Shown: one piece after another, positions 10,786 through 64,000 of the stretch
Numbering within the stretch: the first letter of the stretch is position 1
Layout: each line of letters begins with the position of its first letter
Source: Bacteroidales bacterium
Lineage (GTDB): Bacteria > Bacteroidota > Bacteroidia > Bacteroidales > UBA12077
DNA: 64,000 nucleotides
Direction of reading: 5' to 3'
NCBI GenBank assembly: GCA_028282585.1
Contig: JANQHR010000049.1
Location: 20,626-84,625 of the forward strand
The notes under the pieces: model-generated
Database searches by the model: none
Told to the model about the DNA's origin: nothing
Seen by the model: the letters and a program-made list of their open reading frames with translations, nothing else
Translations under genes and position numbers: made by a program

Positions 10786-10898
10786 CTGTTTATTTTCAAT
10801 TTTCGTTGTTCAAAAGAAGTTCGCATAATAAAGATAATCATCCATAACACACCAATGCTGATCATTGCTCTGTTCATACGATCAAATCTACAAAATAT

Positions 10899-11004
10899 TG
10901 TGTAAAATTTACACATAATTTGGTAATTTTTACTCACTTCTAATTATATAATAGATTTCATAGCACTGATTATCTATCATTTACATCTTTGGCATAAGCC
11001 TTGG
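10899..11004 (+). promoter_or_regulatory. Putative enhancer sites and sigma54 -24/-12 promoter for the ABC permease
   Basis: Palindrome TGTGTAAAATTTACACA (10899-10915), related site at 10921-10936, and TGGCATAAGCCTTGG (10990-11004). Confidence 0.6.
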
Positions 11005-11055
11005 CATAATTTATACACCAAATATTTGAATATTAATTAATACATTTAACATATC

Positions 11056-43262: not shown

Positions 43263-43316
43263 ACAAATAAAATTCCTGCTGGTGTAGGAATCTTAAAAAA
43301 ATTAAAATAGATAATC

Positions 43317-45680: not shown

Positions 45681-45773
45681 TTAGTTACAAATTAAAGATT
45701 TCAAATTTTACGTTCACTTAAATTTTGAATTTGAAACCTGGAATTTAAAATATATTAATATCAATCATCAACC

Positions 45774-48056: not shown

Positions 48057-48194
48057 TCTAAAGTACTTAAAGTTAAGAGTTAAAAAATGTCATTCATTTT
48101 AGGCATTTTAGGCACTCAAGGCAATTATTAAATAAAGATAAAAATCACTAGATCCATTAAAGAAATTAATAATATTAAAATAAAAAGTAAAATT

Positions 48195-49586
48195 ATGTTC
48201 AGTAAAGAAACCTATATAAACAGGCGCAAACAATTAAAAGGGCAAATTGATTCCGGAATTCTTCTTTTTCTTGGAAACGAAGAAAGTTCAATGAATTATG
48301 CAGATAATACCTATAGGTTCAGGCAAGATAGTTCATTTCTTTATTATTTTGGCTTAGACTATCCTGGATTAGTAGGAATTATAGACGTTGACAATGATAA
48401 AGATTATATTTTCGGAGATGATTTAACCATTGACCATATTGTATGGATGGGTTCTCAACCCACAATTAAAGAAAGAAGTGAAAAAGCTGGTATCCAAAAC
48501 ACAGGCCAAATGGATGAAATGCTCGGTTTTTTGAAATCGGCTCAAGAAAAAAATAGAAAAATTCACTTTTTACCTGCATACCGCCCTGAGCATCAAATAA
48601 AGCTCCATAATTGGTTGGGTATTCCAATAAATGATACTCTTAAGCATTCTTCGATTTACATGATCGTTGCTGTCGGAGAACAAAGAAATATTAAATCAAC
48701 AGAAGAAATTGAACAACTGGAACAGGTTGTAAGTGTAACAGCTGATATGCATTTGGCAGCCATGAGGTTTGCCAAACCAGGCATGTCAGAAGCTCAAGTA
48801 GCAGCTAAAGTTCATGAAGTAGCACAAGCTGCTGGCGGAGATATATCATTCCCGATTATTGCAACCATAAATGGGCAAACCCTGCACAACCATTATCATG
48901 GAAATACAATAAAAGAAGGCGATTTATTTTTATTAGATGCAGGTGCTGAAAATAAACTAAGGTATGCTGGAGACATGTCAAGTACATTCCCTGTTTCACG
49001 AAGATTTACCGAAAAGCAAAAGGAGATTTACCAAATAGCATTAAATGCCCACGATTCGGCAATTGAAGCTTTAAAGCCAGGAGTAAATTTCAAACAAATT
49101 CACTTTACTGCTGCACGCACAATATTCGATGGGTTAAAGGAATTAGGGTTTACAAAAGGTAATACTGAAGAAGCAATTTATGAAGGGGCCCATGCCCTGT
49201 TCTTTCCATGTGGCACAGGCCATTTAATGGGTTTAGATGTTCACGACATGGAAAACCTTGGCGAACAATATGTTGGGTATGCAGGCGAACCTAAAAGCAC
49301 TCTATTCGGCTTAAAATCATTACGCTTAGGCCGTGAATTAAAACCTGGCTATGTATTAACTATCGAACCTGGAATTTACTTCATACCGGAATTAATCGAA
49401 CTTTGGAAATCTCAAAACAAATTCACTGAATTTATTAATTATGATAAGGTAGAAGAATATAAAGACTTTGGAGGTACTCGAAACGAAGAAGATATTTTAA
49501 TTACGGATGATGGTTATAAAATATTAGGTAAACCACTAGCTAAAACCATTAAAGAAGTGGAAATTGAACGTGCAAAAGCATTTTAA
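48195..49586 (+). CDS. Xaa-Pro aminopeptidase (M24B, aminopeptidase P)
   Basis: FRQDSSFLY, LDAG...YAGD, GHLMGLDVHD, TIEPGIYF, GG.R.EEDILIT. Confidence 0.92.
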   Translation: MFSKETYINRRKQLKGQIDSGILLFLGNEESSMNYADNTYRFRQDSSFLYYFGLDYPGLVGIIDVDNDKDYIFGDDLTIDHIVWMGSQPTIKERSEKAGIQNTGQMDEMLGFLKSAQEKNRKIHFLPAYRPEHQIKLHNWLGIPINDTLKHSSIYMIVAVGEQRNIKSTEEIEQLEQVVSVTADMHLAAMRFAKPGMSEAQVAAKVHEVAQAAGGDISFPIIATINGQTLHNHYHGNTIKEGDLFLLDAGAENKLRYAGDMSSTFPVSRRFTEKQKEIYQIALNAHDSAIEALKPGVNFKQIHFTAARTIFDGLKELGFTKGNTEEAIYEGAHALFFPCGTGHLMGLDVHDMENLGEQYVGYAGEPKSTLFGLKSLRLGRELKPGYVLTIEPGIYFIPELIELWKSQNKFTEFINYDKVEEYKDFGGTRNEEDILITDDGYKILGKPLAKTIKEVEIERAKAF

Positions 49587-49682
49587 AGAATTACCGGAAT
49601 AATGGAGTAATGAATTAGGTATCGTTTTTCCATAAATCCATTATTCCATTTATCTTTACCATTAAAATTAATCTTTTTTAAA

Positions 49683-50645
49683 ATGTTAGTTATAAGCGAA
49701 CAAGATATAATAAATGCTGTTGAGCCAATTGAATACATTAGTGCTATCGAAAAAGCATATGTAATTCAGGATAAAGCAACTACAAATATCCCTAACAGGA
49801 TGCACATTGATAATGATGAAAATACTTTATTGGTAATGCCAGGATTTATCGAAAGCGTATTCGGAACAAAGCTGGTTTCATTGTTTCCTAAAAATCTTGA
49901 AAAAGAAGAACCTGTTTTAAAAGGTGTAATGGTATTAAATGATGCTGGCACAGGCAAACCGTTAGCAATAATTAATGGAAATAAACTAACAGCTATGAGA
50001 ACAGGAGCTGTTGGTGCAACAGCTGTTAAATACCTTGCCCCTTTTGATTCAAAAACCTTAGGAATTATTGGAGCTGGAGTACAAGCATACCACCAAGCAC
50101 TGTTGATAAGCACTGTCAGGCCTTTTCAAAAGATAATAATCTGCGACAAAAACCTTAGCAAAGCAGAAGTTTTAAAAAGCGGTTTACAAGAAAGATTAGG
50201 GAATATTGGAATTACAGCTACCAATGATTCTAACCAAACTATATTAGGTTCGGATGTTATTGTAACTGCTACCTCATCATATAAACCGGTATTTAATACC
50301 AACATTGAGAATCTTGAGAAAAAATACTTTTTTGCTATTGGTTCATATAAACCCGATATGCAAGAAGTTCCTTTACCGGTTTATGAAAAACTTGATAAGG
50401 TATATGTTGATACATTGCATGCCAAAGAAGAATGTGGCGATATAAAAATTCCGCTTGAAAAAGGTATGATAAAAGATGAAGATGTAATTCCTTTTAGTTC
50501 AGTTTTGACAAGTGGAGAGTTACTTGAACAATCATCTTTATGTTTGTTTAAATCTGTGGGTATGTCCTTGTTTGACTTAACCGTTGCAGAGTTAATTTAT
50601 AATAGTGCTAAAGAAAAAGGCTTGGGGCAAGAAGTAAAAATTTAA
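49683..50645 (+). CDS. Ornithine cyclodeaminase/mu-crystallin family imine reductase (candidate pyrroline-2-carboxylate reductase)
   Basis: MPG, KLVS.FP, LTAMRTGA, GAGVQA, AIGSY.P, FKSVG; lies next to the 3-Hyp dehydratase. Confidence 0.85.
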   Translation: MLVISEQDIINAVEPIEYISAIEKAYVIQDKATTNIPNRMHIDNDENTLLVMPGFIESVFGTKLVSLFPKNLEKEEPVLKGVMVLNDAGTGKPLAIINGNKLTAMRTGAVGATAVKYLAPFDSKTLGIIGAGVQAYHQALLISTVRPFQKIIICDKNLSKAEVLKSGLQERLGNIGITATNDSNQTILGSDVIVTATSSYKPVFNTNIENLEKKYFFAIGSYKPDMQEVPLPVYEKLDKVYVDTLHAKEECGDIKIPLEKGMIKDEDVIPFSSVLTSGELLEQSSLCLFKSVGMSLFDLTVAELIYNSAKEKGLGQEVKI

Positions 50646-50671
50646 ACACACCTTAACTTGATGAATGTAAA

Positions 50672-50727
50672 TGTCATGCTGAGCCTGTCGAAGTATGGCA
50701 TCACTCTTCGACAAGCTCAGAGTGACA
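50672..50727. repeat. REP-like paired inverted repeat
   Basis: TGTCATGCTGAGCCTGTCGAAG ... CTTCGACAAGCTCAGAGTGACA, an imperfect 22-bp IR of a type common between Bacteroidota genes. Confidence 0.75.
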
Positions 50728-50739
50728 ATATTTATAAAT

Positions 50740-51783
50740 GTGAACAAAATACTTAAAAACTGGAAATGGAGCCCTCCAGAAAGCTGGTTGAAAATCAAAA
50801 CCATTGACCTGCATACTGGAGGCGAACCTTTGCGAGTATACACGAATGGATTGCCTCATATTCAAGGCAAAACAATTCTGGAAAAAAGAAGGTATTTTCG
50901 GGATAATTTTGATTTTATCAGAACAGGCACAATGTTCGAGCCCCGGGGGCACGCAGATATGTATGGAGCAATTATTACTGAACCTACCACGAAAGATGCA
51001 GATTTTGGGGCTTTCTTTTTACACAATGAAGGTTACAGCACTATGTGTGGCCACGCTATAATTGCTTTAACAAAATTGGTTTTAGATACTGGCATGATAA
51101 CAAAGAATGGCGAGGAACCTGAATTAGTAATTAATGCACCTCCCGGTAAAATATTTGCTAAAGCTTTTCGCAAAAACGGACTTGTTGCGAGAATTAGTTT
51201 TAAAAACGTACCTTCATTTTTGTATTTAAAAGATAAAACCATTGATGTGCCTGAAATAGGTAGAGTAAAGTTCGATGTTGCTTTTGGAGGTGCTTTTTAC
51301 GCTTTTTGCGATGCTGATGAGTTGGGGTTGAAAATAGATGAATCAGATTATAACCGCTTAATCGATTATGGGAAAAAAATAAAATATGCTGTAATGGAAA
51401 ATTACGAAATCAAGCACCCTTTCGAAGAAGACTTAAGCTTTTTATACGGAACCATTTTCACAGGAAAGGCATATAACTTAAACCACCACAGCCGAAATGC
51501 GTGTATCTTTGCTGAAGGCGAAGTTGACCGTTCCCCTACAGGCTCAGGAGTTAGTGCCAGGGCAGCATTGCATTACGCAAAAGGAGAGTTAAACACAAAT
51601 GAAAAAATCACCATAGAAAGTATCTTAGGCACAACAATGGATGTTGAAATAATAGATCAAACAAATTTTGGGCCTCACCAGGCTATAATACCGGAAGTTA
51701 CGGGAAATGCCTTTATTACAGGGCAGAATGAATTTTATTTTGACCCTAACGACCCTTTAAAAAAAGGTTTTATCTTTAGGTGA
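50740..51783 (+). CDS. Proline racemase family protein, Cys/Thr type (trans-3-hydroxy-L-proline dehydratase)
   Basis: HTGGEP, EPRGHADMYG, STMCGH (Cys), DRSPTGSG (Thr in place of the second Cys). Likely GTG start at 50740, downstream of the repeat. Confidence 0.82.
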   Translation: MNKILKNWKWSPPESWLKIKTIDLHTGGEPLRVYTNGLPHIQGKTILEKRRYFRDNFDFIRTGTMFEPRGHADMYGAIITEPTTKDADFGAFFLHNEGYSTMCGHAIIALTKLVLDTGMITKNGEEPELVINAPPGKIFAKAFRKNGLVARISFKNVPSFLYLKDKTIDVPEIGRVKFDVAFGGAFYAFCDADELGLKIDESDYNRLIDYGKKIKYAVMENYEIKHPFEEDLSFLYGTIFTGKAYNLNHHSRNACIFAEGEVDRSPTGSGVSARAALHYAKGELNTNEKITIESILGTTMDVEIIDQTNFGPHQAIIPEVTGNAFITGQNEFYFDPNDPLKKGFIFR

Positions 51784-51938
51784 TTTCTAATTTTTTACAA
51801 TTAAGGATACGTTTCATACGTTAATTAAAACCTGATGGCTACAAACAGAAAAGATAGAAAAATAAATAACTCGTTTATCTAAATCCTGTGCATCAAGTTA
51901 AATGAAAAAGGTTAAACATATAAAAAAACAACAAAACC

Positions 51939-53579
51939 ATGTTAAGTAAAGTATTATCAATTTTATTAATCCTGGCTTTGGGATTTCAATTAAATTCAAA
52001 AGCTTGTACCGTTATTGCTGTTGGTAAAAAAGCATCTGCAGATGGCTCAAATATAATTTCACATACCGACACTGGCCCGGATTCCAGGATATTTGTAGTT
52101 CCTGCCCAAACTTTTAAACCGGGCTCTAAAGCTCCTGTTTATTGGGGGATTCAAGACGCGAGCCTCCCTTTAAAAGATGATGGCGAGATATTGGGGTATA
52201 TCCCACAAGTTGAAAAAACATTTAAATATTTTCATTCTGCCTATTCTCAGGTAAACGAACATCAATTGGGAATTGCAGAAAGCACAACAGCTCAAAGAAA
52301 AGAATTAATCTGTATGAAAGGCGAAGGCAAACAGATTATGTCCATTGAACAAGCGCAAATATTTGCCTTGCAACGTTATAAAACAGCCCGTGAAGCCGTT
52401 CAGTTTATTGGAGATTTAATGACAAAGTATGGGTTTATACCTTCTAGTGGAGATGGGTCTGAATGTTTAGTTATCGCAGATACCGAAGAAATATGGGTTT
52501 TTGAAGTATTTGGAGTTGGGCATGGATGGGAACCTGAAAGTGGAAAGCCTGGTGCAATATGGGCTGCACAGCGTTTACCAGAGGATGAAACAACCATGGT
52601 ACCCAACTGGAGCATTATAAAAGAAATTAATGCTGAGGATAAGGAAAATTTCATGGTTTCTGAGAATTATATGCAAGAAGCAATTGAGCGCGGTTGGTAC
52701 GACCCAAATTCAGGAGAACCATTCATCTGGCAAGAAATTTATGCACCACCGAGTACAGTAGAATATGCTACAAGCCGTTTTTGGTTATTCCACCAAACTT
52801 TTGCCCCAAATTTGAAAGAATGGCCTAATAGGTTCCCTGAAGGCAATCCATATAAAGGCATTCAGCCTTACTTTCAATATGTTGAACCCCTGTCAATTTA
52901 TCCATTCTCGGTTAAGCCTGAGAAAAAGATGTCTGTTCAGGATGTGATCGCTTTTCAACGTTCAACTTATGAAGGGACAATTTATGACATGACATATGAC
53001 CCAAACTGGTTGGTTCCAAACGGAGAAGGTGGTTATGAAAAAAGCCCTTTAGCCACACCATTTCCAGGCAGCGATTTGAGAAAATTATTAAAAATAACTT
53101 ACCGGCGCCCGGTTGCACGCCACAGAGGGCATTATGGAATGGTGCTTCAGTTGCGTGATTGGTTACCAAATGAAATTGGCGGAGTTTACTGGGTATATTT
53201 GGATAATCCTTATTTTAGCCCTTATGTTCCAATTTATACGGGTAATTTATCAACCCACGAATCGTATCAAATTTATGACCCAAATAAATATAGTGAAAAA
53301 TCAGCAAGGTGGGCAATTGACTTTGTTGATAATTTAGCCAACCTTAAATTTCAGGAGATTGCAAAAGATGTAAAAGAAGTACGGGCCCCTTTTGAAGCTA
53401 AAATGTTCGAAAACCAAAAAGCTATAGAGGATGAAGCTTTAAAACTTTACAAAAAAGCTCCCGAAAAGGCCCAAGAATATTTAACAAATTACTCTAATGG
53501 GCTAATGAACGATGTTACAGAAATGTTTCTGGAGTTAAGAAATCAGATTATCACTGATTATACAAATAATCACGAGTAG
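51939..53579 (+). CDS. Exported C69 family dipeptidase
   Basis: Signal peptide ending in A-CT (N-terminal nucleophile Cys), VGKKASADGS, NEHQLGIAEST, EIWVFE, WAAQR. Confidence 0.88.
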   Translation: MLSKVLSILLILALGFQLNSKACTVIAVGKKASADGSNIISHTDTGPDSRIFVVPAQTFKPGSKAPVYWGIQDASLPLKDDGEILGYIPQVEKTFKYFHSAYSQVNEHQLGIAESTTAQRKELICMKGEGKQIMSIEQAQIFALQRYKTAREAVQFIGDLMTKYGFIPSSGDGSECLVIADTEEIWVFEVFGVGHGWEPESGKPGAIWAAQRLPEDETTMVPNWSIIKEINAEDKENFMVSENYMQEAIERGWYDPNSGEPFIWQEIYAPPSTVEYATSRFWLFHQTFAPNLKEWPNRFPEGNPYKGIQPYFQYVEPLSIYPFSVKPEKKMSVQDVIAFQRSTYEGTIYDMTYDPNWLVPNGEGGYEKSPLATPFPGSDLRKLLKITYRRPVARHRGHYGMVLQLRDWLPNEIGGVYWVYLDNPYFSPYVPIYTGNLSTHESYQIYDPNKYSEKSARWAIDFVDNLANLKFQEIAKDVKEVRAPFEAKMFENQKAIEDEALKLYKKAPEKAQEYLTNYSNGLMNDVTEMFLELRNQIITDYTNNHE

Positions 53580-53677
53580 AAATAAGATAATAATTATTCC
53601 GGGATCCTGCTTTCAGTAAGCATGGTATCTCGGATTTTTATTTTTTCTTATTCGTAAGAATATGAGATAAGACTAAT

Positions 53678-54796
53678 TTATAGCAGAATATTATTAACAT
53701 ATTCTCCTATCGCTAAGGAAGACGTCAAACCTGGCGATTCGATTCCAATTAAGTTTACGAATCCGGGAAACCCTTTTTTTAATTCTTCCTGAACATAAAA
53801 ATCTTGAATGGCCTCGCCCTGTTTTTGGATTTTTGGCCGTATGCCTGCCATTTCCGGAACTAAATCATTCAATTCTAAAAACGGCAAAAACTTCTTAGCT
53901 GATTCATAAAAAGCTTTTTGCTGTAATTTATTCACCGAATAATCATAAATATTATCAGGCATCCATTCTACATCTGGGCCCAGCTTTACTCCTCCTCCCA
54001 TATCAATGGTAACATGTATTCCAATTCCCTCCATATTGGGGTTTGGAACAGGATATACCAACCTATTTAACAATTTATTTTTTGGAGGGTTTACCCTAAA
54101 ATAATTTCCTTTGCAAAATGAAAGTTTTAGTGATTCGTTATCCATTCCAACCATGCCAGAAACTTTATCTGATTCCAGGCCGGCGGCATTTACTACCTTT
54201 TTTGTTTTAAAAGAAAAGTCTTTTCCGTCAGAATCTTTTAATAAAATTTCATACCCATTTTCAATTTTATTAACTTCTATTAATTCAGCTCCATATGAGA
54301 ATTGAACACCTTGATTTATAGCATTTGTTTCCAATTGTTTCATAAAGAAATGCGAGTCTATAACCCCCGTTGATGGTGAAAAAAGCGCTCCATAACAATC
54401 AATATTTGGCTCTAATTCCTTTATCTCACCTTCATTTAAAAGGCGTAAATCTTTAACTCCATTATGAAAAGCTTTCTTTTTTAATTCTTCAAGCAACATT
54501 ACCTCTTCGGTTGATGTTGCTACAATTAATTTTCCACAATTATTATAAGGAACTTCATACTCTTTACAGAAGTTATATAACAAATACTTACCCTCAACAC
54601 AAAGTTTTGCCTTTAAACTATTTTTGGGATAGTAAATTCCTGCATGGATTACTTCACTGTTACGGCTACTCGTTTCCTGCCCAAAAGATTTATTTCTTTC
54701 AATAACAAATACATCGGTATAATCTTCCGAAAGTTTTGCCGCAATGGCTAAACCAACTACTCCGGCACCTATAATTGCAATATTTGAATCAAACAT
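53678..54796 (-). CDS. FAD-dependent oxidoreductase, L-2-hydroxyglutarate oxidase (LhgO) family
   Basis: GAGVVG, ETSSRNSEVIHAGIYY, LVYPVP, GIHVT, AGIRPK, GIESPGLTSS. Confidence 0.88.
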   Translation of the reverse strand: MFDSNIAIIGAGVVGLAIAAKLSEDYTDVFVIERNKSFGQETSSRNSEVIHAGIYYPKNSLKAKLCVEGKYLLYNFCKEYEVPYNNCGKLIVATSTEEVMLLEELKKKAFHNGVKDLRLLNEGEIKELEPNIDCYGALFSPSTGVIDSHFFMKQLETNAINQGVQFSYGAELIEVNKIENGYEILLKDSDGKDFSFKTKKVVNAAGLESDKVSGMVGMDNESLKLSFCKGNYFRVNPPKNKLLNRLVYPVPNPNMEGIGIHVTIDMGGGVKLGPDVEWMPDNIYDYSVNKLQQKAFYESAKKFLPFLELNDLVPEMAGIRPKIQKQGEAIQDFYVQEELKKGFPGFVNLIGIESPGLTSSLAIGEYVNNILL

Positions 54797-54908
54797 AGTA
54801 TCTTAAATCTCATGTAAACATACTAAGAATTTTACTTTACTTGAAGCAAAAAAGGTGCGCAAACATGTAATTTGTACACCTTACATTTTAAAATAAATAA
54901 ATTATTTA

Positions 54909-55409
54909 TTATGCTATTTGCTCTTTATACTTAACCTGCATCTTTTTAACTCCTTTATAAAATTCGGGGAATCTTTTCCATAAATCCTTTTCGCATGAGT
55001 TTAATTCGCCACACTGAATACAAGAATCAAAGCCCTTCTCAATTGCACACGCTCGAACAGTACAATTTGAAACTACCATCCCTTGTGGCTTTTCTTGGTT
55101 TTTACAACGCCAACAAATGGCAATTTTGGTATCAAACTCTATACCATACCGTTCTTTTAATTTCCATACATCAAATGCTTCCTTTTTCTTAGTGTCATCG
55201 CCTTCAACAGTTGCTATATAAAACTTGCAATCTTCAGGGCATGTATAGCCACAGTAATTTAATTTCTCAGGGTCAATCTTTTCATCAACAAACATTTTAG
55301 AAAATGAGCCTGCAGCAACGAATTTAGAACTCATTAACATTGCACAACAAGCCATACCAGCTTGCGTACTCTTTTTGAAGAAATTTCTTCTATTCATCTT
55401 ATTTTTCAT
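54909..55409 (-). CDS. Cys-rich DUF3795-like protein with twin-arginine signal
   Basis: NRRNFFKK Tat motif, then YCG..C...C, C..C, C.VR.C...KG...C..C....C. Confidence 0.7.
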   Translation of the reverse strand: MKNKMNRRNFFKKSTQAGMACCAMLMSSKFVAAGSFSKMFVDEKIDPEKLNYCGYTCPEDCKFYIATVEGDDTKKKEAFDVWKLKERYGIEFDTKIAICWRCKNQEKPQGMVVSNCTVRACAIEKGFDSCIQCGELNSCEKDLWKRFPEFYKGVKKMQVKYKEQIA

Positions 55410-55658
55410 TCGTTTCAGGTTTGGTTAATTAATTGTATTCTAGATTTTAAGATTACAAACTATGTTAACACCCTTTCATACTTTCTGTATTATTAGTAAT
55501 AACAAATTATTTTAAATTCATTTTAAATAAGCAATAGTTTTCGACAACTAAACAAGTACAAGCCTAATAATCATCAGATTTACAATATTTTAAAGCATCA
55601 CCCATTTATCAACTATTTTAGTGCAGCTCAAAGCCTTATGTAACTTGAATAATTTTAT

Positions 55659-55666
55659 TATGTTTG
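55659..55666 (+). promoter_or_regulatory. Bacteroidota -7 promoter element upstream of aprB
   Basis: TATGTTTG ending 27 nt before the aprB ATG. Confidence 0.6.
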
Positions 55667-55692
55667 TGAACTAACCTTAAAAGTCCTAAAAT

Positions 55693-56127
55693 ATGCCAAG
55701 CTTTGTAATAAACGAAAAGTGCGATGGATGTAAAGCTCAAGATAAAACAGCTTGCCAATACATATGTCCAAATGATTTAATGATTTTAGACAAAGAAAAA
55801 AATAAAGCATACAACCGTGCCGTTGATATGTGCTGGGAATGTTATAGTTGTGTTAAAATCTGCCCAACACAAGCAATTGAAGTTCGCGGATATGCTGATT
55901 TTATGCCACTTGGTGCTGTAGTTCAACCTCTACGAAGTACCGATTCAATTATGTGGTCGGTTAAATTTCGTAATAAGAAAATTAAAAGGTTTAAATTTCC
56001 AATTCGTACTACTCCGGAAGGTAGTGCAGAACCAGATGCCGGAATGCAAACGGGTTCTGATGACTTAAAAAGCCCTTTACTAAGGACTGAACCAGAATCA
56101 CTAGGAACTGACTTGTACAAAAAATAG
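55693..56127 (+). CDS. aprB: Adenylylsulfate (APS) reductase beta subunit
   Basis: MPSFV...CDGCK..DKTACQYICPNDLM, CWECYSCVKICP, VRGYADF, KRFKFPIRTTPEGS. Confidence 0.95.
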   Translation: MPSFVINEKCDGCKAQDKTACQYICPNDLMILDKEKNKAYNRAVDMCWECYSCVKICPTQAIEVRGYADFMPLGAVVQPLRSTDSIMWSVKFRNKKIKRFKFPIRTTPEGSAEPDAGMQTGSDDLKSPLLRTEPESLGTDLYKK

Positions 56128-56180
56128 ATTTTTGGATACAAGTATCAAGACGCAAGATTTTAACAAGTACTGAAAATCTT

Positions 56181-56220
56181 AAACTTGAAACTTGAAACTT
56201 GAAACATTGAACTTGAAACT
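56181..56220 (+). repeat. Heptamer tandem repeat (TTGAAAC)n
   Basis: AAACTTGAAACTTGAAACTTGAAACATTGAACTTGAAACT. Related short arrays occur near 45700-45745, 58126-58170, 61561-61582 and 61703-61723. Confidence 0.75.
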
Positions 56221-56228
56221 ATAGAATC

Positions 56229-58118
56229 ATGATAACGAAAGATTTCGAAACAGTAATTATAGAAACTGATTTATTAATACTTGGTGGCGGTATGGCTGCT
56301 TGCGGTGCAGCTTATGAAGCCTCATACTGGGCAAAAAAACATAACAAAAAAGTAACTGTTGTTGATAAAGCATCAATAGAACGCAGTGGTGCTGTAGCTA
56401 TGGGGCTATCAGCAATCAACCTTTATATGGGTTTAAAAGATGGTAAAAATACCGTTGAAGATTATATAAATTACGTTAAAAATGACCTGATGGGCATTGC
56501 CCGCGACGATTTAGTTGCAAACATTGCCCGCCATGTAGATGGTTCCGTTCATTTATTCGAAAAGTGGGGACTGCCAATTTGGAAAGATGAAGAAGGAAAT
56601 TATGTGAACGAAGGCCGTTGGCAAATTATGATTCATGGTGAATCGTATAAAAATATTGTTTCAGAAGCTGCTAAAAATGCCTTAAAAGATCTAGGTGATA
56701 ATGGTGAATACATTGAACGTGTTTTTATTACGGAACCCATTATGGATGGAAACCGTTGTGTGGGAGCAGCAGGGTTTAGTGTCCGTGAAAACAAATTCTA
56801 TATTTTTAAAGCAAAAGCTGTAATGGACGTGATGGGTGGCGCTGTTCATATTTTCCGCCCAAAATCCGTAGGTGAAGGTTTAGGAAGGTCTTGGTACCCT
56901 CCTTTTAACTCTGGCGCTAGCACATACTTTACTCTTAAAGCCGGAGCTGAAATGACCTGCCAGGAAGTTCGTTTTGTCCCGGTTCGCTTTAAAGATTCTT
57001 ATGGGCCTGTTGGCGCCTGGTTCTTACTTTTTAAATCGAAAGCAACCAATGCCAAAGGCGAAGATTATATGGAGACACGTAAAGCAGAACTTGAAAACTG
57101 GGCTCCTTACGGAACTTCAAAACCTGTTCCTGCGAACCTTAGAAACTATTTAATGCTTCAGGAATTAGAAGAAGGAAATGGGCCAATTTATATGAGGACG
57201 GAAGAAGCAATTAAAGAATTAATGGCAGATATTCAGGATGAAAAACAAGCAAAACGCAAAATGAAAGAGCTTGAATCGGAAGCATGGGAAGATTTTTTGG
57301 ATATGACTGTTAGCCAGGCATTAAACTGGGCTGCTCACAATATTTCACCGGAAGAAACCCCTTCGGAGATTTCTGCTTGCGAACCTTACTTCATTAGCTC
57401 ACATTCAGGTGCTTCGGGTGCATGGATTAGTGGCCCTAAAGATTTATCGCCATCCGAAGAGTATCACTGGGGTTATGATAATATGACAACAGCCAAAGGA
57501 TTATTTGCTGCCGGTGATGCATCTGGTGCTTCATCACACAAATTCTCTTCCGGTTCGTTTACCGAAGGTAGAATTGCTGCAAAAGCTGCAATTTCATTCA
57601 TAGTTGATAACCCGGAGGATGTGAATATTTCAGAAGAAAAAATGAGTGAATTAAAAGAAAAGATATTACAACCACTTTCAACTTTTAATGAGCATAAAGA
57701 TTTTGCGAACGATGAAGATGTAAACCCAAATTTTATCAAGCCTAAAATGTTTATGTTCCGTTTACAAAAAATTATGGATGAATATGCAGGTGGTGCTTCT
57801 GTAAATTTCAAAACTTCAAAAGCATTGTTGGAAAAAGGCCTTGAATTCTTACAATTTATGAAAGAAGATGCTGAAAAACTTGCAGCTTCTGATACGAATG
57901 AACTTATGCGTTGTTGGGAAAATGTTCACCGTATGTGGCAAGCAGAATCTCATATCAGAACGATGTTGTTCCGCGAAGAAACTCGTTGGCCAGGATATTA
58001 TTTCAGAACGGACCACCCTACAATGAAAGAAGATTGGAAAGCATTTGCAAATTGTAAATGGAACCCTGAAACTGAAGAGTGGGAAATGATAAAGAGAGAT
58101 ATTAAAGAATTGACTTAA
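56229..58118 (+). CDS. aprA: Adenylylsulfate (APS) reductase alpha subunit
   Basis: GGGMAACG, ERSGAVAMGLSAIN, WQIMIHGESYK, RFKDSYGPVGAWFL, EAWEDFLDMT, HKFSSGSFTEGR, REETRWPGYY. Confidence 0.96.
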   Translation: MITKDFETVIIETDLLILGGGMAACGAAYEASYWAKKHNKKVTVVDKASIERSGAVAMGLSAINLYMGLKDGKNTVEDYINYVKNDLMGIARDDLVANIARHVDGSVHLFEKWGLPIWKDEEGNYVNEGRWQIMIHGESYKNIVSEAAKNALKDLGDNGEYIERVFITEPIMDGNRCVGAAGFSVRENKFYIFKAKAVMDVMGGAVHIFRPKSVGEGLGRSWYPPFNSGASTYFTLKAGAEMTCQEVRFVPVRFKDSYGPVGAWFLLFKSKATNAKGEDYMETRKAELENWAPYGTSKPVPANLRNYLMLQELEEGNGPIYMRTEEAIKELMADIQDEKQAKRKMKELESEAWEDFLDMTVSQALNWAAHNISPEETPSEISACEPYFISSHSGASGAWISGPKDLSPSEEYHWGYDNMTTAKGLFAAGDASGASSHKFSSGSFTEGRIAAKAAISFIVDNPEDVNISEEKMSELKEKILQPLSTFNEHKDFANDEDVNPNFIKPKMFMFRLQKIMDEYAGGASVNFKTSKALLEKGLEFLQFMKEDAEKLAASDTNELMRCWENVHRMWQAESHIRTMLFREETRWPGYYFRTDHPTMKEDWKAFANCKWNPETEEWEMIKRDIKELT

Positions 58119-58177
58119 TGATTAATTTCAGGTTTCAAATTCTTAATCTGAAACTTGAAATTTGAAATTCTTATTCA

Positions 58178-59404
58178 ATGAATAAAACTCAAAAACCAGT
58201 TTTAATTATCGGTGGAGGAATTAGCGGAGTTACAACAGCTGTTGAAATTGCGGAGGTTGGAAAGGAAGTTATTCTTATTGAAAAAATGCCCTACTTTGGT
58301 GGCAATGTAGTAAAATTCAATAATTATTTTCCTAAGCTTTGCCCGCCGACATGCGGGCTAGAAATTAACTTTAGGAGAATCAAACAAAATCCAAGAATCA
58401 AATATTACACTTCTACAGAAGTGCAGGAAATTTCAGGAGAAAAAGGAAATTTTAATGTTAAAATTAAGACCTCTCCTCAATACATTAAAAACAACTGCAC
58501 TGCTTGTGGTAAATGTGCAGAAATATGCCCTGAAGAACGCCCTGATGAATTTAATTATGGGTTTACTAATACTAGAGCAGCTTATATTCCTCATGAAATA
58601 GCATTTCCTTTTAAGTATCATATCGATAATGAATATTGTAAAAAGGAATCATGCAATAAATGTGTAGATGCCTGTAAATACAATGCAATTGATTTATCTG
58701 CTAAAGAGAAAATTACAGAACTTGAGGTTAGCTCAATTGTAACAGCTACGGGTTGGGAAAGCTATGATGCTTCAAAAATTGAGAATTTAAATTATTCTGA
58801 TTCGAAGAATATAATTACAAACGTTGAGTTTGAACGATTTATCGCTTCAAATGGAGTTAATGAGAATAAACTTCTCCGGTTATCGGATAATACAGAGCCT
58901 AAAAAAGTTGCATTTGTTCAATGTGCGGGTTCGCGGGATGAAAATCATTTGCCTTATTGTTCAGCGGTTTGTTGCTCGGCTTCATTAAAGCATGCTTTAA
59001 CCATTCAGGAATTGTATCCAAAAACTGAAGTGAAGGTATTCTATATTGACATGCGCGTTTCAGGACGAAATGAAGATTTTTTAACCGAAGTACAGGAAAA
59101 TAAAAATATTGAATTGGTTAAAGGAAAGGTTGGAAAAATCATTGAAGCTGAAAATGGTAATTTGATTCTCGAAGCTGAAGATATTCTTTCCGGAAAGAAA
59201 ATTAAATATGAAGCTGAAATAGTTGTTTTGGCAACCGGTATTGTATCTTCTAAAACAAATTTAAACCTAAATAGAGATCAAAATCAATTTATTACTGATA
59301 AGCAAATCGAAGGAATTATTCCTGTTGCATGTAGCAGAAAACCAATGGATGTTTCATCATCGGTAAAGGATGCAACTTCAGCTGCAGTAAAGGCTATTCA
59401 ATAA
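58178..59404 (+). CDS. qmoA: QmoA (HdrA-like flavoprotein)
   Basis: GGGISG, YFPKLCPPTCGLEIN, ferredoxin motifs, FVQCAGSRD...YCS.VCC.ASLK; follows aprA. Confidence 0.92.
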   Translation: MNKTQKPVLIIGGGISGVTTAVEIAEVGKEVILIEKMPYFGGNVVKFNNYFPKLCPPTCGLEINFRRIKQNPRIKYYTSTEVQEISGEKGNFNVKIKTSPQYIKNNCTACGKCAEICPEERPDEFNYGFTNTRAAYIPHEIAFPFKYHIDNEYCKKESCNKCVDACKYNAIDLSAKEKITELEVSSIVTATGWESYDASKIENLNYSDSKNIITNVEFERFIASNGVNENKLLRLSDNTEPKKVAFVQCAGSRDENHLPYCSAVCCSASLKHALTIQELYPKTEVKVFYIDMRVSGRNEDFLTEVQENKNIELVKGKVGKIIEAENGNLILEAEDILSGKKIKYEAEIVVLATGIVSSKTNLNLNRDQNQFITDKQIEGIIPVACSRKPMDVSSSVKDATSAAVKAIQ

Positions 59405-59441
59405 CCTGCCTGTCAGTAGACGGGCTTAAAAGCTAAGAAAA

Positions 59442-61553
59442 TTGGAAAAGAAAATAGGCGTATATATATGTTCGGGATGTGAAATTGGAAAAAGCATAGA
59501 TATTGAAAAACTTAGCCAAATTGCTTCAGAACAAAATGTTACCATTTGTAAAAATCATTCATCACTCTGCTCTATTGAAGGTTTTGATTTAATCAGCAGT
59601 GACATTGCAAATGAGAATATTGATAGAGTAATTATTGCAGCATGTTCTCCAAGGTTAAAAACAGAAGTTTTTGATTTCCCTGAAAATGTTTTACTTGATA
59701 GAGCAAATATTCGTGAGCAGGTTGCCTGGAGCATGGAACCAAATGAAGAAGATACTCAAATGGCAGCAGAAGATTGCCTTCGAATGTCAATCGCAAAAGT
59801 AGCCAACACAGAAATCCCGAATCCATTTATTGCTGATAATATAAGTTCCGATATTTTAGTTGTTGGAGGAGGAATTACTGGGATAACTGCCGCCATTGAT
59901 GGAGCGAAAGCTGGTTATAAAGTGCATATCATCGAAAAAGAAGAAAAGCTTGGAGGTTGGCTAAATAAACTTCACAAACAAATACCGTATGCAGCACCAT
60001 ATAGTGAATTAATCAATCCGGAAATTGAAGATAAGATTAAGGAACTTGAAAAACTTGATAATATTCAAATTCATACATCAACAACAATTAAAGAAATTTC
60101 CGGGCAACCGGGGCATTTTGAAGTTCAATTATTAAATGGCAAAGAAGAGAAAGTTATAGTTGGCTCAATTGTTACAGCAACAGGTTGGCAAGCGTACGAT
60201 GCAAATAAATTATCTTACTTAGGGTATGGTAACCCTAAAGTGCTTACCAATGTCGAATTTGAAGAATTTGTAAAAAATAATCCTGGTAAAGAATTTCCAA
60301 AGAATATTTTATTTATTCAATGTGCAGGGTCAAGAGATAAAGGCCATCTACCCTATTGTTCTGCATTCTGTTGTGCAACCAGCTTAAAACAAGCCAAATA
60401 CATTCGCGATTTAAGCCCTGAATCCAACGTATTTGTAGTTTATAAAGATATTCGCACTCTAGGTTTATATGAAGAATTTTACAAGGAAATTCAAAAGGAT
60501 GATCAAATCTTTTTTACAAAAGGTGAAATTGAAAAAGTAATTCCGGAAAAAAATAATATTTCAGTTCAGGTAAAAGATACATTAATTGGTGAAGATATTT
60601 CTTTATCAGTTGATATGTTAGTTTTAGCAACAGGAATGATTCCAAACGGAACTGAAGATTTAAACTTGAATTACCGTTTAGGTAAGGGGTTGCCTGAACT
60701 AAAATATAATTTCTCTGATTCGCACTTTATTTGTTTCCCTTACGAAACAAGAAGAACTGGAATCTATGCTGCTGGAAGTTTAAGGGAGCCTATGAATATT
60801 GCATCCAGTAAATCAGATGCAAGCGGTGCTATGCTTAAAGCAATACAAACCATTCAAGCAACCAAACGTGGCGAAGCCGTTCACCCCCGCTCCGGAGATA
60901 AATCATACCCGGACTTATTCCTTGACCGCTGTACTGACTGTAAACGTTGTACCGAAGAATGCCCATTTGGGTCTTATGATGAAAATGAAAAGGGTACTCC
61001 CCTTCCAAACCCAAACAGGTGCCGCCGTTGCGGAATTTGTCTAGGCTCATGCCCTGAACGGGTTATTAATTTTGCTGACTATTCTATCAATAGTATTTCT
61101 GCTATGATTAAATCAGTAGAAGTCCCGGATGAATTTGAAGAAAAACCAAGAATTCTGGTATTTGTATGCGAAAACGATGCTTATCCGGCTATGGACATGG
61201 CTGCTCAAAAAGGATTAAAATATAGCCCCTTTGTAAGAGTTATTCCTGTTCGCTGTTTAGGTTCTATTAATAAAGTTTGGATTTCGGATGCCCTTTCAAA
61301 AGGGTATGATGGCATTTTACAAATCGGTTGTAAACCAGGCGATGATTACCAATGCCATTTTATACATGGAAGTGAGTTAACTGAAACGCGTGGTGAAAAT
61401 ATTCAGGAAACACTGGAAACCATGATGTTAGAGCCAGAAAGAATTAAAACAGAATTTGTAGAAATAACAGATTATGATAAGATTCCGAAAATCATTAATG
61501 ATTATGTGGAAGATATTGAACTGATTGGGCCGAATCCTTTTAAAGAACTTTAA
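59442..61553 (+). CDS. qmoB: QmoB (HdrA-like with C-terminal MvhD-like domain)
   Basis: GVYICSGC, AACSPR, SHFICFPYETRRTG, CTDCKRCTEECP, CRRCGICLGSCP, CENDAYP..VRCLGS..DYQCHF. TTG start. Confidence 0.93.
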   Translation: MEKKIGVYICSGCEIGKSIDIEKLSQIASEQNVTICKNHSSLCSIEGFDLISSDIANENIDRVIIAACSPRLKTEVFDFPENVLLDRANIREQVAWSMEPNEEDTQMAAEDCLRMSIAKVANTEIPNPFIADNISSDILVVGGGITGITAAIDGAKAGYKVHIIEKEEKLGGWLNKLHKQIPYAAPYSELINPEIEDKIKELEKLDNIQIHTSTTIKEISGQPGHFEVQLLNGKEEKVIVGSIVTATGWQAYDANKLSYLGYGNPKVLTNVEFEEFVKNNPGKEFPKNILFIQCAGSRDKGHLPYCSAFCCATSLKQAKYIRDLSPESNVFVVYKDIRTLGLYEEFYKEIQKDDQIFFTKGEIEKVIPEKNNISVQVKDTLIGEDISLSVDMLVLATGMIPNGTEDLNLNYRLGKGLPELKYNFSDSHFICFPYETRRTGIYAAGSLREPMNIASSKSDASGAMLKAIQTIQATKRGEAVHPRSGDKSYPDLFLDRCTDCKRCTEECPFGSYDENEKGTPLPNPNRCRRCGICLGSCPERVINFADYSINSISAMIKSVEVPDEFEEKPRILVFVCENDAYPAMDMAAQKGLKYSPFVRVIPVRCLGSINKVWISDALSKGYDGILQIGCKPGDDYQCHFIHGSELTETRGENIQETLETMMLEPERIKTEFVEITDYDKIPKIINDYVEDIELIGPNPFKEL

Positions 61554-61591
61554 TTTAAGATTTAAAACTTGAAATTTGAAATAAAAAAATC

Positions 61592-61644
61592 ACCGCAAAG
61601 GCACAAAGGCGCTAAGAATCTCTGCGACTCGGCGCCTTAGCGGT
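61592..61644. repeat. REP-like imperfect palindrome
   Basis: ACCGCAAAGGCACAAAGGCGCTAAG...CTCTGCGACTCGGCGCCTTAGCGGT, a GC-rich intergenic IR. Confidence 0.55.
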
Positions 61645-61731
61645 TAAAATGAATAGAAATTCAAAGGAAGCAATTGTTAGCATTTAGCTTTATGACTGAG
61701 ATCTGAAACCTGAAACCTGAAATCCTTAACT

Positions 61732-62826
61732 ATGATAAATATACAGCCAGATATTAAATTCAAAAAGCAACTTAAAGAGGTTAGCAAAAGTTCATTAAAC
61801 GAATGTATGCAATGTGGAACATGTTCTGTTGTTTGTTCTCTTGCACCGGAAGAAAAGCCTTTTCCACGTAAAGAGATGATTTGGGCTGGTTGGGGAATGA
61901 AAGACAAGCTAATTGGAAATACGGATATTTGGCTATGCCACCAGTGTGGCGATTGTAGTACGTATTGCCCACGGGGAGTTAAGCCTGCCGATGTTTTCTC
62001 TGCAGTTCGTGAAATATCATACCAGCATTATGCTAAACCAAAATTTTTAGGAAAAATTTTAAATAACCCGAAATGGTTGCCAATTGCAATATTAATACCA
62101 ATAATAATCATTTCAACAATATTATATTTAGCAGGAACTTTACAAATTCCTGAAGGCCCAGTTAATTATTCTAAGTTTTTTCCGCATGTATGGTTAAACA
62201 GCTCATTTACTTTTTTATCGTTTCTAACTATAGCTTTAGGAATAGCCGGGTTAAGAAACTTCTGGAAAGATTTAAGATTACAATATCCTGATTTTAAACC
62301 ATCTGGTAGTTTCATTAAACATTTATTCTCAATACGAAAAGAAATAATTCTTCATTCGAATTTTAGTAAATGCTCAAATAAAAAATCAAGAAAAATTGCC
62401 CACCTTCTGGTATTTTATGGATTTATACTATTGCTATTCGTTACTGCATTTGCCATATATGCTGCAATAGTTCACAAATATCCATTAGCTATAACAAATC
62501 CATTCAAAATTTTAGGCAATGTAGCTGCCATGATGCTATTAATTGGATTAGGCATAATGATTATGAATCGAATATTTGATAGAAAGGATTTTGGAAATAG
62601 TACCTATGCTGACTGGTTATTTTTAATTTCCATGTTTTTGCTAACCATATCAGGAGTTGTAGTGCAGGCAGCAAGATTTTTAGATTGGGGCATAGCTTAC
62701 CATCTTTATTTCTTCCACCTTATTTGCGTATGGTTTATAATTATTTACCTGCCATATACCAAATTTGGGCATTTGTTGTACAGGGTTGTTGCTATGGTAT
62801 TTGCTGCTTCAGCCGGAAGAAAATAA
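61732..62826 (+). CDS. qmoC: QmoC (HdrC-like Fe-S domain plus heme b membrane domain)
   Basis: CMQCGTCSVVC, PFPRKEMIWA.WG, WLCHQCGDCSTYCPRG, TM His residues (AHLLVFYGF, FFHL, PYTKFGH). Confidence 0.93.
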   Translation: MINIQPDIKFKKQLKEVSKSSLNECMQCGTCSVVCSLAPEEKPFPRKEMIWAGWGMKDKLIGNTDIWLCHQCGDCSTYCPRGVKPADVFSAVREISYQHYAKPKFLGKILNNPKWLPIAILIPIIIISTILYLAGTLQIPEGPVNYSKFFPHVWLNSSFTFLSFLTIALGIAGLRNFWKDLRLQYPDFKPSGSFIKHLFSIRKEIILHSNFSKCSNKKSRKIAHLLVFYGFILLLFVTAFAIYAAIVHKYPLAITNPFKILGNVAAMMLLIGLGIMIMNRIFDRKDFGNSTYADWLFLISMFLLTISGVVVQAARFLDWGIAYHLYFFHLICVWFIIIYLPYTKFGHLLYRVVAMVFAASAGRK

Positions 62827-62844
62827 TTAATAATAAAATTAATT

Positions 62845-63216
62845 CTAATCATCCTCATATTCGATATATTTTGCCTTTGTTCTTCTTAAACTGTGATAAA
62901 TCATTTCTCCAAACTCAAGCATATCCGAATCATCAATTTCGTAATACCAATTCATATCAACTTTTTTGATCTTGGAATTATTATCAATTAGTTTTAACAA
63001 TTCTATGATTCTTTTTGAAGATGAAGTATTTACATATTCTAACTTTATTTGAATATCCACCTGTTCAGAATCAAGTTCATTTATCCATTTAAACAAAGGA
63101 TCGAAAAATTTTTTTGGGTCCTCTGGTAAAGATCTTCCTTTAATACTCAAATGACCGGATTGCTTAAAATTTATTTCTGGTGTTGAATTTGTATAATTTA
63201 TATATAAATCTTCCAT
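62845..63216 (-). CDS. DUF1987 / SiaC family protein
   Basis: TPEI.F, GRSLPED...FF.P...W, LEY.NTSSSK, WYYE.DD.DMLE.GE. Confidence 0.85.
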   Translation of the reverse strand: MEDLYINYTNSTPEINFKQSGHLSIKGRSLPEDPKKFFDPLFKWINELDSEQVDIQIKLEYVNTSSSKRIIELLKLIDNNSKIKKVDMNWYYEIDDSDMLEFGEMIYHSLRRTKAKYIEYEDD

Positions 63217-63426
63217 TTACTTTTCTTATAAAACAATTAATAACAAGTTTAACTTATTAATATCGCAACTTAAGCTTTAATACAAGATACGTAATCTAAA
63301 AAAACTTAACAAATGACTTATTGATTTTTTTGACGAAAAATATCAGTTAATTTTTCCACATTAAGTTTAGCTAATTAAGAAGTTATTTTAAACGATCATT
63401 TATTATTAGGCTTCATGAAATTACTT

Positions 63427-64000
63427 TTAAACTATAGTCGGTAGATGTATCTCCACTCTTGTGCCCTTTGGGCTCCCGAAGATATCGCGTTTATCGATAT
63501 ACTCTATTTTCATTTCTTTGTTATATAAAGTATTTGCAATATCCAGTCTTTTTTCTGTGATCTTTGTTCCTAAAGATTTATGTGTAATGTTTTTTTTCTT
63601 CCGTATTTTTCTTGCTGCTTCCCTTCCTACTCCATTATCATCAACTATACAGCATAAAGATTCATTTATAATCTTTATTTCTATATTTATTTTTCCTTTT
63701 TCATCTTTTTTATTACATATTCCATGAAGAATTGCATTCTCAACAAAGGGTTGGATTAATAAGGTAGGTATTTTATAATCTAAAACCTCATCTTCAAAGT
63801 TTATGTTATACTCAAACTTGTCTTCAAACCTTAGCAGTTCTAAATCCAGATATAACTGCAAAGCTTCCAGCTCTTTTTCAATGGGTATTGTTTGATGCTG
63901 AGAATTATCAAGTGTTAGCCTCATTAATTTGGAAAACCGGGTAAGGTATTTATTCGAAGCTTCTTTGTTATTTTCATAAATAAAGCATTGAATAGAATTC
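63427..64000 (-). CDS. LytS/YehU-type sensor histidine kinase, C-terminal part (5' truncated)
   Basis: Frame open to the window end (NSIQCFI...RFSKLMR); ELE.L..YL.LE..RF, IQPFVENAILHG, DNGVG, GTRVEI. Confidence 0.88.
   Translation of the reverse strand, partial: NSIQCFIYENNKEASNKYLTRFSKLMRLTLDNSQHQTIPIEKELEALQLYLDLELLRFEDKFEYNINFEDEVLDYKIPTLLIQPFVENAILHGICNKKDEKGKINIEIKIINESLCCIVDDNGVGREAARKIRKKKNITHKSLGTKITEKRLDIANTLYNKEMKIEYIDKRDIFGSPKGTRVEIHLPTIV

Follow-up and report, generated by a model that had tools for sequence, protein, structure and literature searches.

The window examined here is a stretch of 64,000 nucleotides (nt), the terminal 64 kb of an 84,625-base contig (JANQHR010000049.1) in the genome of a marine Bacteroidales bacterium (GCA_028282585.1). 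Near its end lie the genes of an adenosine 5'-phosphosulfate (APS) reductase, aprBA, followed by those of the membrane complex QmoABC. Sulfate reducers and sulfur oxidisers are routinely detected by the marker gene aprA. In this bacterium the aprBA-qmoABC operon lies outside both canonical sulfate respiration and Dsr-based sulfur oxidation, and we read it as a putative stand-alone APS/sulfite:menaquinone oxidoreductase placed on a sulfate-activation branch that ends at sulfite. As such it would be a natural case of Apr-Qmo working apart from the rest of the pathway, a simpler background for questions of direction, second redox partner and energy conservation, and it points to a sulfite/APS economy, so far unrecognised, among abundant anaerobes that degrade polymers and peptides.

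The aprBA-qmoABC operon

Five co-oriented and uninterrupted open reading frames (ORFs; 55693-62826 in the ORF list) correspond to aprB, aprA, qmoA, qmoB and qmoC (Table 1). Three of their products pass curated cut-offs: AprA with TIGR02061 (877.7 bits; cut-off 641.75), AprB with TIGR02060 (203 bits; NCBIfam cut-off 135.65) and QmoC with the equivalog model NF038018 (401.9 bits; cut-off 300). AprB, whose gene adjoins aprA, also matches the APS-reductase C-terminal domain (PF12139, 116 bits). AprA aligns over its full length to the Archaeoglobus fulgidus enzyme (PDB 1jnr, 788 bits), and in the HMMER alignment N74, Y95, E141, W234, R265, R317 and H398 of 1jnr chain A, which we take to be the substrate-binding and catalytic residues, are all identical. 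QmoA and QmoB have no dedicated model and are assigned by their domains and gene order: both match the HdrA2 model (QmoA 361 bits, under the model's cut-off; QmoB 422 bits), and two HdrA-like flavoproteins between aprA and qmoC, the second with an MvhD/FlpD domain (PF02662, 135 bits), make up the QmoA/QmoB architecture. The best PDB matches for the Qmo subunits are HdrA, HdrC and MvhD, there being no solved Qmo structure for comparison.

Cofactor residues are kept in alignments of 62-86 related rows across the operon proteins. The eight cysteines of AprB (86 rows), the cysteine motifs of QmoA (82 rows), the iron-sulfur (Fe-S) cysteines of QmoB and, in QmoC (62 rows), eight cysteines together with His208, His224, His329 and His347 are invariant; these four histidines are probably haem ligands. 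Since equivalog models are passed and catalytic and cofactor residues are conserved, the five genes are real and look functional, as the original prediction of five intact genes with their cofactor motifs had it.

Upstream of aprB, TATGTTTG fits TAnnTTTG, which we take to be the Bacteroidota -7 promoter consensus. Of 81 related Bacteroidales loci, 56 have the motif in the 100 nt 5' of aprB, where shuffles predict 5.7; its median distance from the start codon is 34 nt, and 53 of the 81 have exactly TATGTTTG. Only 0-2 loci each have TAnnTTTG 5' of aprA, qmoA, qmoB or qmoC. Because the motif is enriched before aprB and nearly absent at the four internal genes, this pattern supports a single native promoter and a single transcript for the operon; the Bacteroidota-type promoter first proposed from this one locus is thus a feature that relatives share.

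Table 1. Positions (in the window) of the operon genes and of features in and before their spacers
Feature	Coordinates	Strand	Description
Bacteroidota-type -7 promoter element TATGTTTG	55659..55666	+	ends before aprB; 27 nt to ATG
aprB, APS reductase beta subunit	55693..56127	+	144 amino acids (aa); two 4Fe-4S clusters
Tandem heptamer array AAACTTG x5.7	56181..56220	+	ends 8 nt before aprA start; Tandem Repeats Finder (TRF) score 64
aprA, APS reductase alpha subunit	56229..58118	+	629 aa; flavin adenine dinucleotide (FAD)
Tandem heptamer array AATTTGA x3.6	58145..58169	+	precedes qmoA start
qmoA	58178..59404	+	408 aa; HdrA-like FAD/Fe-S protein
qmoB	59442..61553	+	703 aa; HdrA-like, two 4Fe-4S motifs, C-terminal FlpD/MvhD domain; TTG start as called
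Heptamer array AATTTAA x4.4	61552..61582	+	straddles qmoB stop
GC-rich stem-loop, qmoB-qmoC spacer	61592..61644	+	minimum free energy -23.1 kcal/mol; z-score -3.78
Tandem heptamer array CTGAAAC x2.9	61703..61722	+	ends 9 nt before qmoC start
qmoC	61732..62826	+	364 aa; two 4Fe-4S motifs and membrane di-heme b module

Host genome and integrity of the contig

The host genome comprises 4.89 Mb in 173 contigs (completeness 98.35%, contamination 3.89%, GC 31.9%), and other contigs carry Bacteroidota hallmarks such as SusC/SusD (TIGR04056, 912 bits) and a Flavobacteria-type LolA1. The host is a marine Bacteroidales bacterium, neither a member of Chlorobia nor of Kapabacteria. It stands, as the original prediction supposed, outside the Bacteroidota classes known for Apr/Qmo, which have sat beside aprBA and an AprA 50% or 69% identical to that of the window.

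The operon has a GC content of 0.34-0.39, slightly higher than the genome mean of 0.319, as it might if a sulfate reducer's fragment had been joined onto a Bacteroidales contig in assembly or binning. Several observations argue against such an artefact. A 41,705-base contig from a second assembler (Logan), which derives from the probable source run and is therefore not an independent sample, spans window positions 50000-63577 with both junctions, 0 differences and a flat depth of 13.8. The gene clusters flanking the operon recur in other metagenome-assembled genome (MAG) contigs (L019, L027, L029 and L032), and the operon is also found in G008, a closed, 99% complete single-contig genome from the genus, where AprA is 92% identical. 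Preservation of the Bacteroidota-specific promoter element, and a single clade uniting the Bacteroidales-type AprA sequences (see below), also tell against it. The chimera check that had been proposed at the outset therefore comes out clear: a chimera is excluded for practical purposes, and we give the artefact next to no credence. Long residence of the operon, also suggested at that stage, is borne out by the conserved native promoter and by flank synteny common to other MAGs. A search of sequencing runs for the operon returned no RNA run, only a DNA run, the probable source, labelled as a coral metagenome.

Distribution and AprA phylogeny

The trait is patchy yet widespread in Bacteroidales. 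Almost all genomes compared here are MAGs, and since related genomes are not independent samples, the counts serve as description only. aprA is present in 17 of the 36 other congeneric species (GTDB-species genomes), in none of 19 genomes from the family's three other genera, and in 17 of 300 other genomes sampled evenly across the order, which represent 11 of 199 genera and 10 families. In the species-genome collection, 225 relatives were confirmed by a pattern scan. Among the best 80, all of them MAGs and the work of numerous independent studies, AprA is 71-96% identical to that of the window, and nearly all bear the title Bacteroidales, Bacteroidota, Bacteroidia, Marinilabiliales or Prolixibacteraceae (exceptions: two Chlorobiota, one Saprospiraceae and one Rikenellaceae); some of them lie on contigs of 0.8-6.2 Mb. 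The relatives come from seeps, sulfidic springs, stratified lakes, sediments and one animal-associated sample.

In a phylum-wide sample (n=400) aprA was otherwise confined to family f159 (20 of 87 genomes) and one genome of family f178 (G710). The f159 genomes, of 2.1-3.0 Mb and with the arrangement sat-aprBA-qmoABC, are probably Chlorobiaceae-like. A quick maximum-likelihood tree of 96 AprA rows unites the 91 Bacteroidales-type rows in one clade with a Shimodaira-Hasegawa-like approximate likelihood ratio (SH-aLRT) support of 97; the f178 row is sister to this clade and f159 lies beyond a branch of 0.86 changes per column. The tree holds sequences of the phylum Bacteroidota only and is silent on the donor and on monophyly with respect to other phyla. 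In a protein atlas, Thermodesulfobacteriota are the commonest taxon in the nearest AprA clusters, a lead only, which is not used here. One genome of the same genus (G005, C76:4252-6087, L009) has an aprA with one in-frame TAG, which may be a sequencing error or mark a pseudogene.

Sulfate activation that ends at sulfite

Partner genes were surveyed in 39 Bacteroidales genomes, namely 28 aprA-positive ones (10 families, one genome closed) and 11 aprA-negative members of the genus. Sat (TIGR00339) was found neither in the window's genome nor in any of the 28 or the 11. The search is sensitive within the phylum, because the same model scores 395 bits (f159) and 403 bits (f178) on the sat genes adjoining aprB. 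dsrA (TIGR02064) was not found in the window's genome, 98.35% complete as it is, and the NIR_SIR domain (PF01077), common to DsrAB, AsrC, CysI, Sir and Fsr, was found in 0 of the 39 genomes. With neither Sat nor a siroheme sulfite reductase, the operon can serve neither sulfate respiration nor Dsr-type sulfur oxidation and lies outside both; the label 'dissimilatory', under which it was first described, is therefore not supported in the pathway sense.

The upstream half of the pathway, in contrast, is retained. cysC-cysD-cysN lie together on contig C135 of this genome, and CysD was detected in 26 of 28 aprA-positive and 11 of 11 aprA-negative genomes; the two lacking it are both f25 genomes, one of which has cysC at a contig start, so that an assembly gap is possible and their lack of CysD is not used as evidence. 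CysH, encoded on C161, has 241 aa with the CC...CxxC Fe-S and ECGLH motifs and scores 275 bits (cut-off 235.3) with TIGR02055, the model of thioredoxin-dependent APS reductase, which is also passed in 28 of 28 aprA-positive and 10 of 11 aprA-negative genomes. As CysDN, CysC and CysH are kept and the sulfite reductase domain is missing throughout, sulfate activation reaches sulfite across the lineage and ends there.

Could a canonical dissimilatory sulfate reduction or Dsr-type sulfur oxidation nevertheless be present, with sat and dsr lost from view in binning or assembly? The assembly is in 173 contigs, the operon ends 1.2 kb from a contig end, and C128 (L006, 9298-12915) encodes a TusE/DsrC-family protein (76.7 bits) with a DsrE2-like protein, DUF1641 and a type III sulfide:quinone oxidoreductase (SQR), a Crp/Fnr regulator lying alongside. 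However, Sat and NIR_SIR are absent from all 28 aprA-positive genomes in their 10 families, the closed, 99% complete one included. The TusE/DsrC-like gene stands with SQR and DsrE2 and is as common in aprA-negative relatives: among genus members it occurs in 12 of 12 aprA-positive and 10 of 11 aprA-negative genomes. NrfA can reduce sulfite slowly and might act as a substitute sulfite reductase; it is present in the window's genome but missing in 11 of the 28 aprA-positive genomes, the closed one among them (17 of 28 have it, against 9 of 11 aprA-negative genomes). Neither the TusE/DsrC-like gene nor NrfA is associated with aprA over the 28 and 11 genomes, and a hidden canonical pathway is very improbable and close to refuted. 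The SQR on C128 matches a model named 'selenoprotein subtype' (660 bits) and is read without a stop codon.

The genome also offers outlets for quinol. A complete quinol:fumarate reductase (cytochrome b558, flavoprotein and Fe-S subunits) is encoded on C79 and NrfH-NrfA on C15, so that there is a menaquinone pool with ways out for its electrons. Extra glycyl-radical enzymes were seen in 6 of 28 aprA-positive and 0 of 11 aprA-negative genomes, and molybdopterin enzymes in both groups. On C92 (L129) lies the gene of a formate dehydrogenase alpha subunit of about 900 aa whose N-terminal part resembles NuoG, with a NuoF-like gene next to it; the C92 molybdoenzymes were considered as thiosulfate reductase and rejected, being formate dehydrogenases. 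A second, tandem formate dehydrogenase alpha gene (C92:24037-25296) is suggested by a similar Pfam molybdopterin match.

Putative direction of the reaction

APS/sulfite has a potential of about -60 mV and menaquinone of about -74 mV. As these are close, the step between them should be reversible, and its direction has to be sought in the gene content. From homology to characterised Qmo we infer that AprBA is coupled to the quinone pool. By our own energetic reasoning, the ATP and GTP consumed in activation cannot be recovered if APS is reduced but sulfite is not; a reductive role would therefore have to be a biosynthetic one, in which Apr duplicates CysH. No lineage dropped CysH after gaining Apr (28 of 28 keep it), which argues that Apr and CysH are not redundant. 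The window's genome also has no recognisable consumer of sulfite: there is no NIR_SIR domain, and cysteate synthase (TIGR03844), a possible consumer, is present only as scattered colinear fragments (C48, about 9685-11194) at a syntenic site beside a conserved neighbour. G008, G175 and the aprA-negative G003 have an intact copy (about 490 bits); here the gene looks decayed. Since CysH is never lost and no sulfite consumer is found in this genome, we lean, with a confidence that falls somewhat short of even, towards net sulfite oxidation to APS with reduction of menaquinone.

In such an oxidative scheme AprBA would combine sulfite and adenosine monophosphate (AMP) to APS, the two electrons would pass from AprBA through QmoABC to menaquinone, and menaquinol would be reoxidised by quinol:fumarate reductase or NrfHA. 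The complex would thereby remove toxic sulfite. As to the fate of the APS, which like the direction we infer, it might be cleaved by CysDN acting in reverse, phosphorylated by CysC or re-reduced by CysH.

A number of points weigh against sulfite oxidation. Every characterised Apr-based sulfite oxidiser known to us has Sat or APS:phosphate adenylyltransferase, and Sat was found in none of the 28 aprA-positive genomes; nor do we know of any documented physiological reversal of CysDN. No sulfite-generating catabolic enzyme was found, with Xsc, SuyAB and CuyA not searched by model; a regex screen of the genome for Xsc, with a thiamine-diphosphate motif, returned nothing convincing, which is not evidence of absence. 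The sole glycyl-radical enzyme found in this genome is a hydroxyproline dehydratase, 22 of the 28 aprA-positive genomes have at most one such enzyme, and the large C92 molybdoenzymes are formate dehydrogenases, not a thiosulfate reductase. The nearest sampled AprA sequences are of sulfate-reducer types (f178, 69% identity; A. fulgidus, 788 bits, versus Desulfovibrio gigas, 630 bits), whereas the sulfur-oxidiser-type f159 proteins are merely about 50% identical. Lastly, co-transcription of cysH and apr looks futile unless the two form a cycle. In 17 of 93 related loci cysH is no more than 8 kb away from aprA, and in 10 of 16 aprA-positive genomes from other families it is on the same contig within 10 kb; in f120 it immediately precedes aprB in the same orientation, and the 70 nt shown 5' of aprB contain no TAnnTTTG. 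The energy linkage that the original prediction gave to APS reduction or sulfite oxidation is thus unproven: reduction would not repay the cost of activation, and an ATP-yielding oxidation would have to proceed without the usual Sat.

The linkage of cysH fits a shared sulfate-assimilation regulon, and with it a reductive role in which APS made by CysDN would be reduced to sulfite by AprBA-Qmo with menaquinol, as a respiratory-type alternative to thioredoxin-dependent CysH, and the sulfite would enter sulfonates (for example cysteate for sulfonolipids) rather than sulfide. All steps to sulfite are encoded, from cysC-cysD-cysN, with CysD in 26 of 28 genomes, to Apr-Qmo; Sat would be unnecessary in this direction; and the AprA lineage is closest to sulfate-reducer types. 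Cysteate synthase scores over the cut-off in three of five genomes tested (G008, G175 and G003, the last aprA-negative). An AprA-like enzyme is assimilatory in a methanogen, according to the title of PDB entry 8a8o (330 bits), and assimilatory roles of AprAB in Dsr-less organisms are discussed by Neukirchen et al. (2023; PMC10504309). Yet the role would duplicate that of CysH, which all 28 aprA-positive genomes keep. In this genome cysteate synthase is lost, and no other consumer of sulfite can be recognised. Five genes rich in Fe-S and haem would also be costly for a low-flux step that a 241-aa CysH performs. On the potentials given above, menaquinol is a marginal donor to APS. Such biosynthetic reduction is possible, but we think it less likely than sulfite oxidation.

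CysH and AprBA-Qmo might also run in opposite directions and form a catalytic APS/sulfite shuttle. CysH with thioredoxin would reduce APS to sulfite, AprBA-Qmo would convert sulfite and AMP back to APS with reduction of menaquinone, and the pair would act as a thioredoxin (NADPH):menaquinone oxidoreductase for which CysDN only primes the APS. The missing Sat and sulfite reductase would then be dispensable, the retention of CysH in 28 of 28 genomes and its place directly upstream of and co-oriented with aprB in f120 would be explained, and the lack of a sulfite sink here together with the presence of quinol outlets would fit. There would be no ATP cost, AprBA regenerating the AMP-sulfate bond. 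The cycle has no precedent, however, and would dissipate about 200 mV for no obvious gain. cysH is unlinked in the window's genus (in the closed G008 it maps to 3.91 Mb, aprA to 0.50 Mb), and aprA-negative relatives also keep CysH, CysDN and CysC. We regard the shuttle as improbable; if true, anaerobic Bacteroidales would possess a small-molecule redox shuttle of a new kind.

Comparison with known systems

The f159 operons, in which a Chlorobiaceae-like sulfite oxidation may be expected, share with the window the order aprB-aprA-qmoA-qmoB-qmoC, a QmoC-containing Qmo and the phylum. They differ in having sat directly upstream of aprB (TIGR00339, 395 bits), where the window's genome has none, and in an AprA about 30 aa longer; identities are 49-50% for AprA, 53-54% for QmoA, 46-49% for QmoB and 39-41% for QmoC. 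Chlorobiaceae also carry the Dsr system (PMC10591310; PMC10504309). 'Candidatus Thermonerobacter thiotrophicus' of the Kapabacteria has sat-aprBA-hyp-hyp-qmoC with qmoAB apart, along with dsrABCD and related genes, according to its description (PMC6338057). G710, with the nearest AprA found outside the Bacteroidales clade (AprA 69% and AprB 73% identical to those of the window), shows this published arrangement, qmoAB-sat-aprBA-hyp-hyp-qmoC; it thus has sat (403 bits) and a split qmo, whereas the Bacteroidales operon is compact and without sat or dsr.

Full-length AprA matches also link the window to the AprAB structures of A. fulgidus (1jnr, 2fja; 788 bits) and D. gigas (3gyx; 630 bits), enzymes that, unlike the Bacteroidales operon, belong to full sulfate-respiration pathways with Sat and DsrAB. 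The QmoABC of Desulfovibrio has the same three-subunit architecture in a different metabolic context, and interacts directly with AprAB, as reported by Ramos et al. (2012; PMC3333476). The Methanothermococcus thermolithotrophicus 3'-phosphoadenosine 5'-phosphosulfate (PAPS) reductase (8a8o) has the AprA fold and is assimilatory by its entry title, but it is a distant relative (330 bits) without Qmo and from an archaeal host. Dsr-less aprBA was reportedly described by Meyer and Kuever in 2007 in marine heterotrophs such as SAR11, with sulfite oxidation or detoxification as the proposed role. Those SAR11-type lineages have AprM in place of QmoABC, keep Sat and are aerobes; they share with the Bacteroidales considered here that both are heterotrophs with AprBA and without Dsr.

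The full-text literature searched held no description of Apr-Qmo in Bacteroidales, although supplements of PMC9040765 (Text S1, Table S2) and PMC10504309 (Fig. 11) may list such cases. Chlorobia and Kapabacteria are the only Dsr-carrying Bacteroidota named in reviews (PMC10591310), and the main text of a study of Dsr-associated proteins in 195,000 genomes has no word beginning with Bacteroid (PMC10504309). Within this literature the view that Apr-Qmo is not an established Bacteroidales trait stands, although the genes sit in many public MAGs, where they have presumably been annotated automatically. The Bacteroidales fermenters with aprBA-qmoABC but without sat and dsr, a large clade, will therefore be miscounted by aprA surveys and by automated 'sulfate reduction' calls.

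Flanking genes and spacer elements

The operon is flanked, as first noted, by ordinary genes. Directly upstream lies a cluster for the catabolism of hydroxyproline and collagen peptides (window 42468-53579), which includes the trans-4-hydroxy-L-proline dehydratase HypD (43317-45680; NF043068, 1239.7 bits, cut-off 1100), the sole glycyl-radical enzyme mentioned above. It further encodes a glycyl-radical activase, an Xaa-Pro aminopeptidase, an ornithine-cyclodeaminase/P2C-reductase family protein, a proline-racemase/3-hydroxyproline-dehydratase family protein and a C69 dipeptidase. In several members of the genus the HypD cluster stays 9-30 kb from aprA. The downstream side is short, the contig ending 1174 bases past qmoC; on the opposite strand, 3' of qmoC, are a homologue of SiaC-family regulatory phosphoproteins (62845-63216) and a histidine-kinase fragment (63427-63999), and both genes are conserved at the same position in close relatives (clusters 9 and 33). 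Elsewhere the flanks of related loci consist of housekeeping genes that differ from clade to clade, and none of the annotated conserved flank clusters of the 93 related loci contains sat, dsr or pyrophosphatase.

The spacers before aprA, qmoA and qmoC contain tandem heptamers of the YTGAAAY type, and the array before aprA has the highest TRF score in the window. The four arrays of the operon are real, whereas the claim that the same repeats are seen elsewhere in the window is weak, the sole other period-7 row being 41488-41503 with 2.3 copies. Arrays of at least three tandem YTGAAAY copies occur at seven sites in the 4.9-Mb genome, three of them inside the operon, and in related operons these spacers hold different short tandem repeats, specific to each lineage; the arrays may be a leader or translation element of the internal cistrons. 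The stem-loop between qmoB and qmoC lies in AT-rich surroundings and has no T-tract behind it; equal folding was reached in 1 of 200 shuffles.

Some relatives have small genes in the operon spacers (L119:8121-8480, L108:13349-13753 and L117:10227-10604). Four-helix-bundle proteins (TIGR02436) are encoded in one aprA-qmoA and one qmoB-qmoC spacer, and a GxxExxY protein in a relative's qmoA-qmoB spacer. YTGAAAY arrays are located 4-25 nt 5' of start codons; those outside the operon (C10:22020-22054, C15:4591-4611, C65:76485 onward and C111:18033-18053 of this genome) precede a FabH-like gene, hypB and an unannotated gene.

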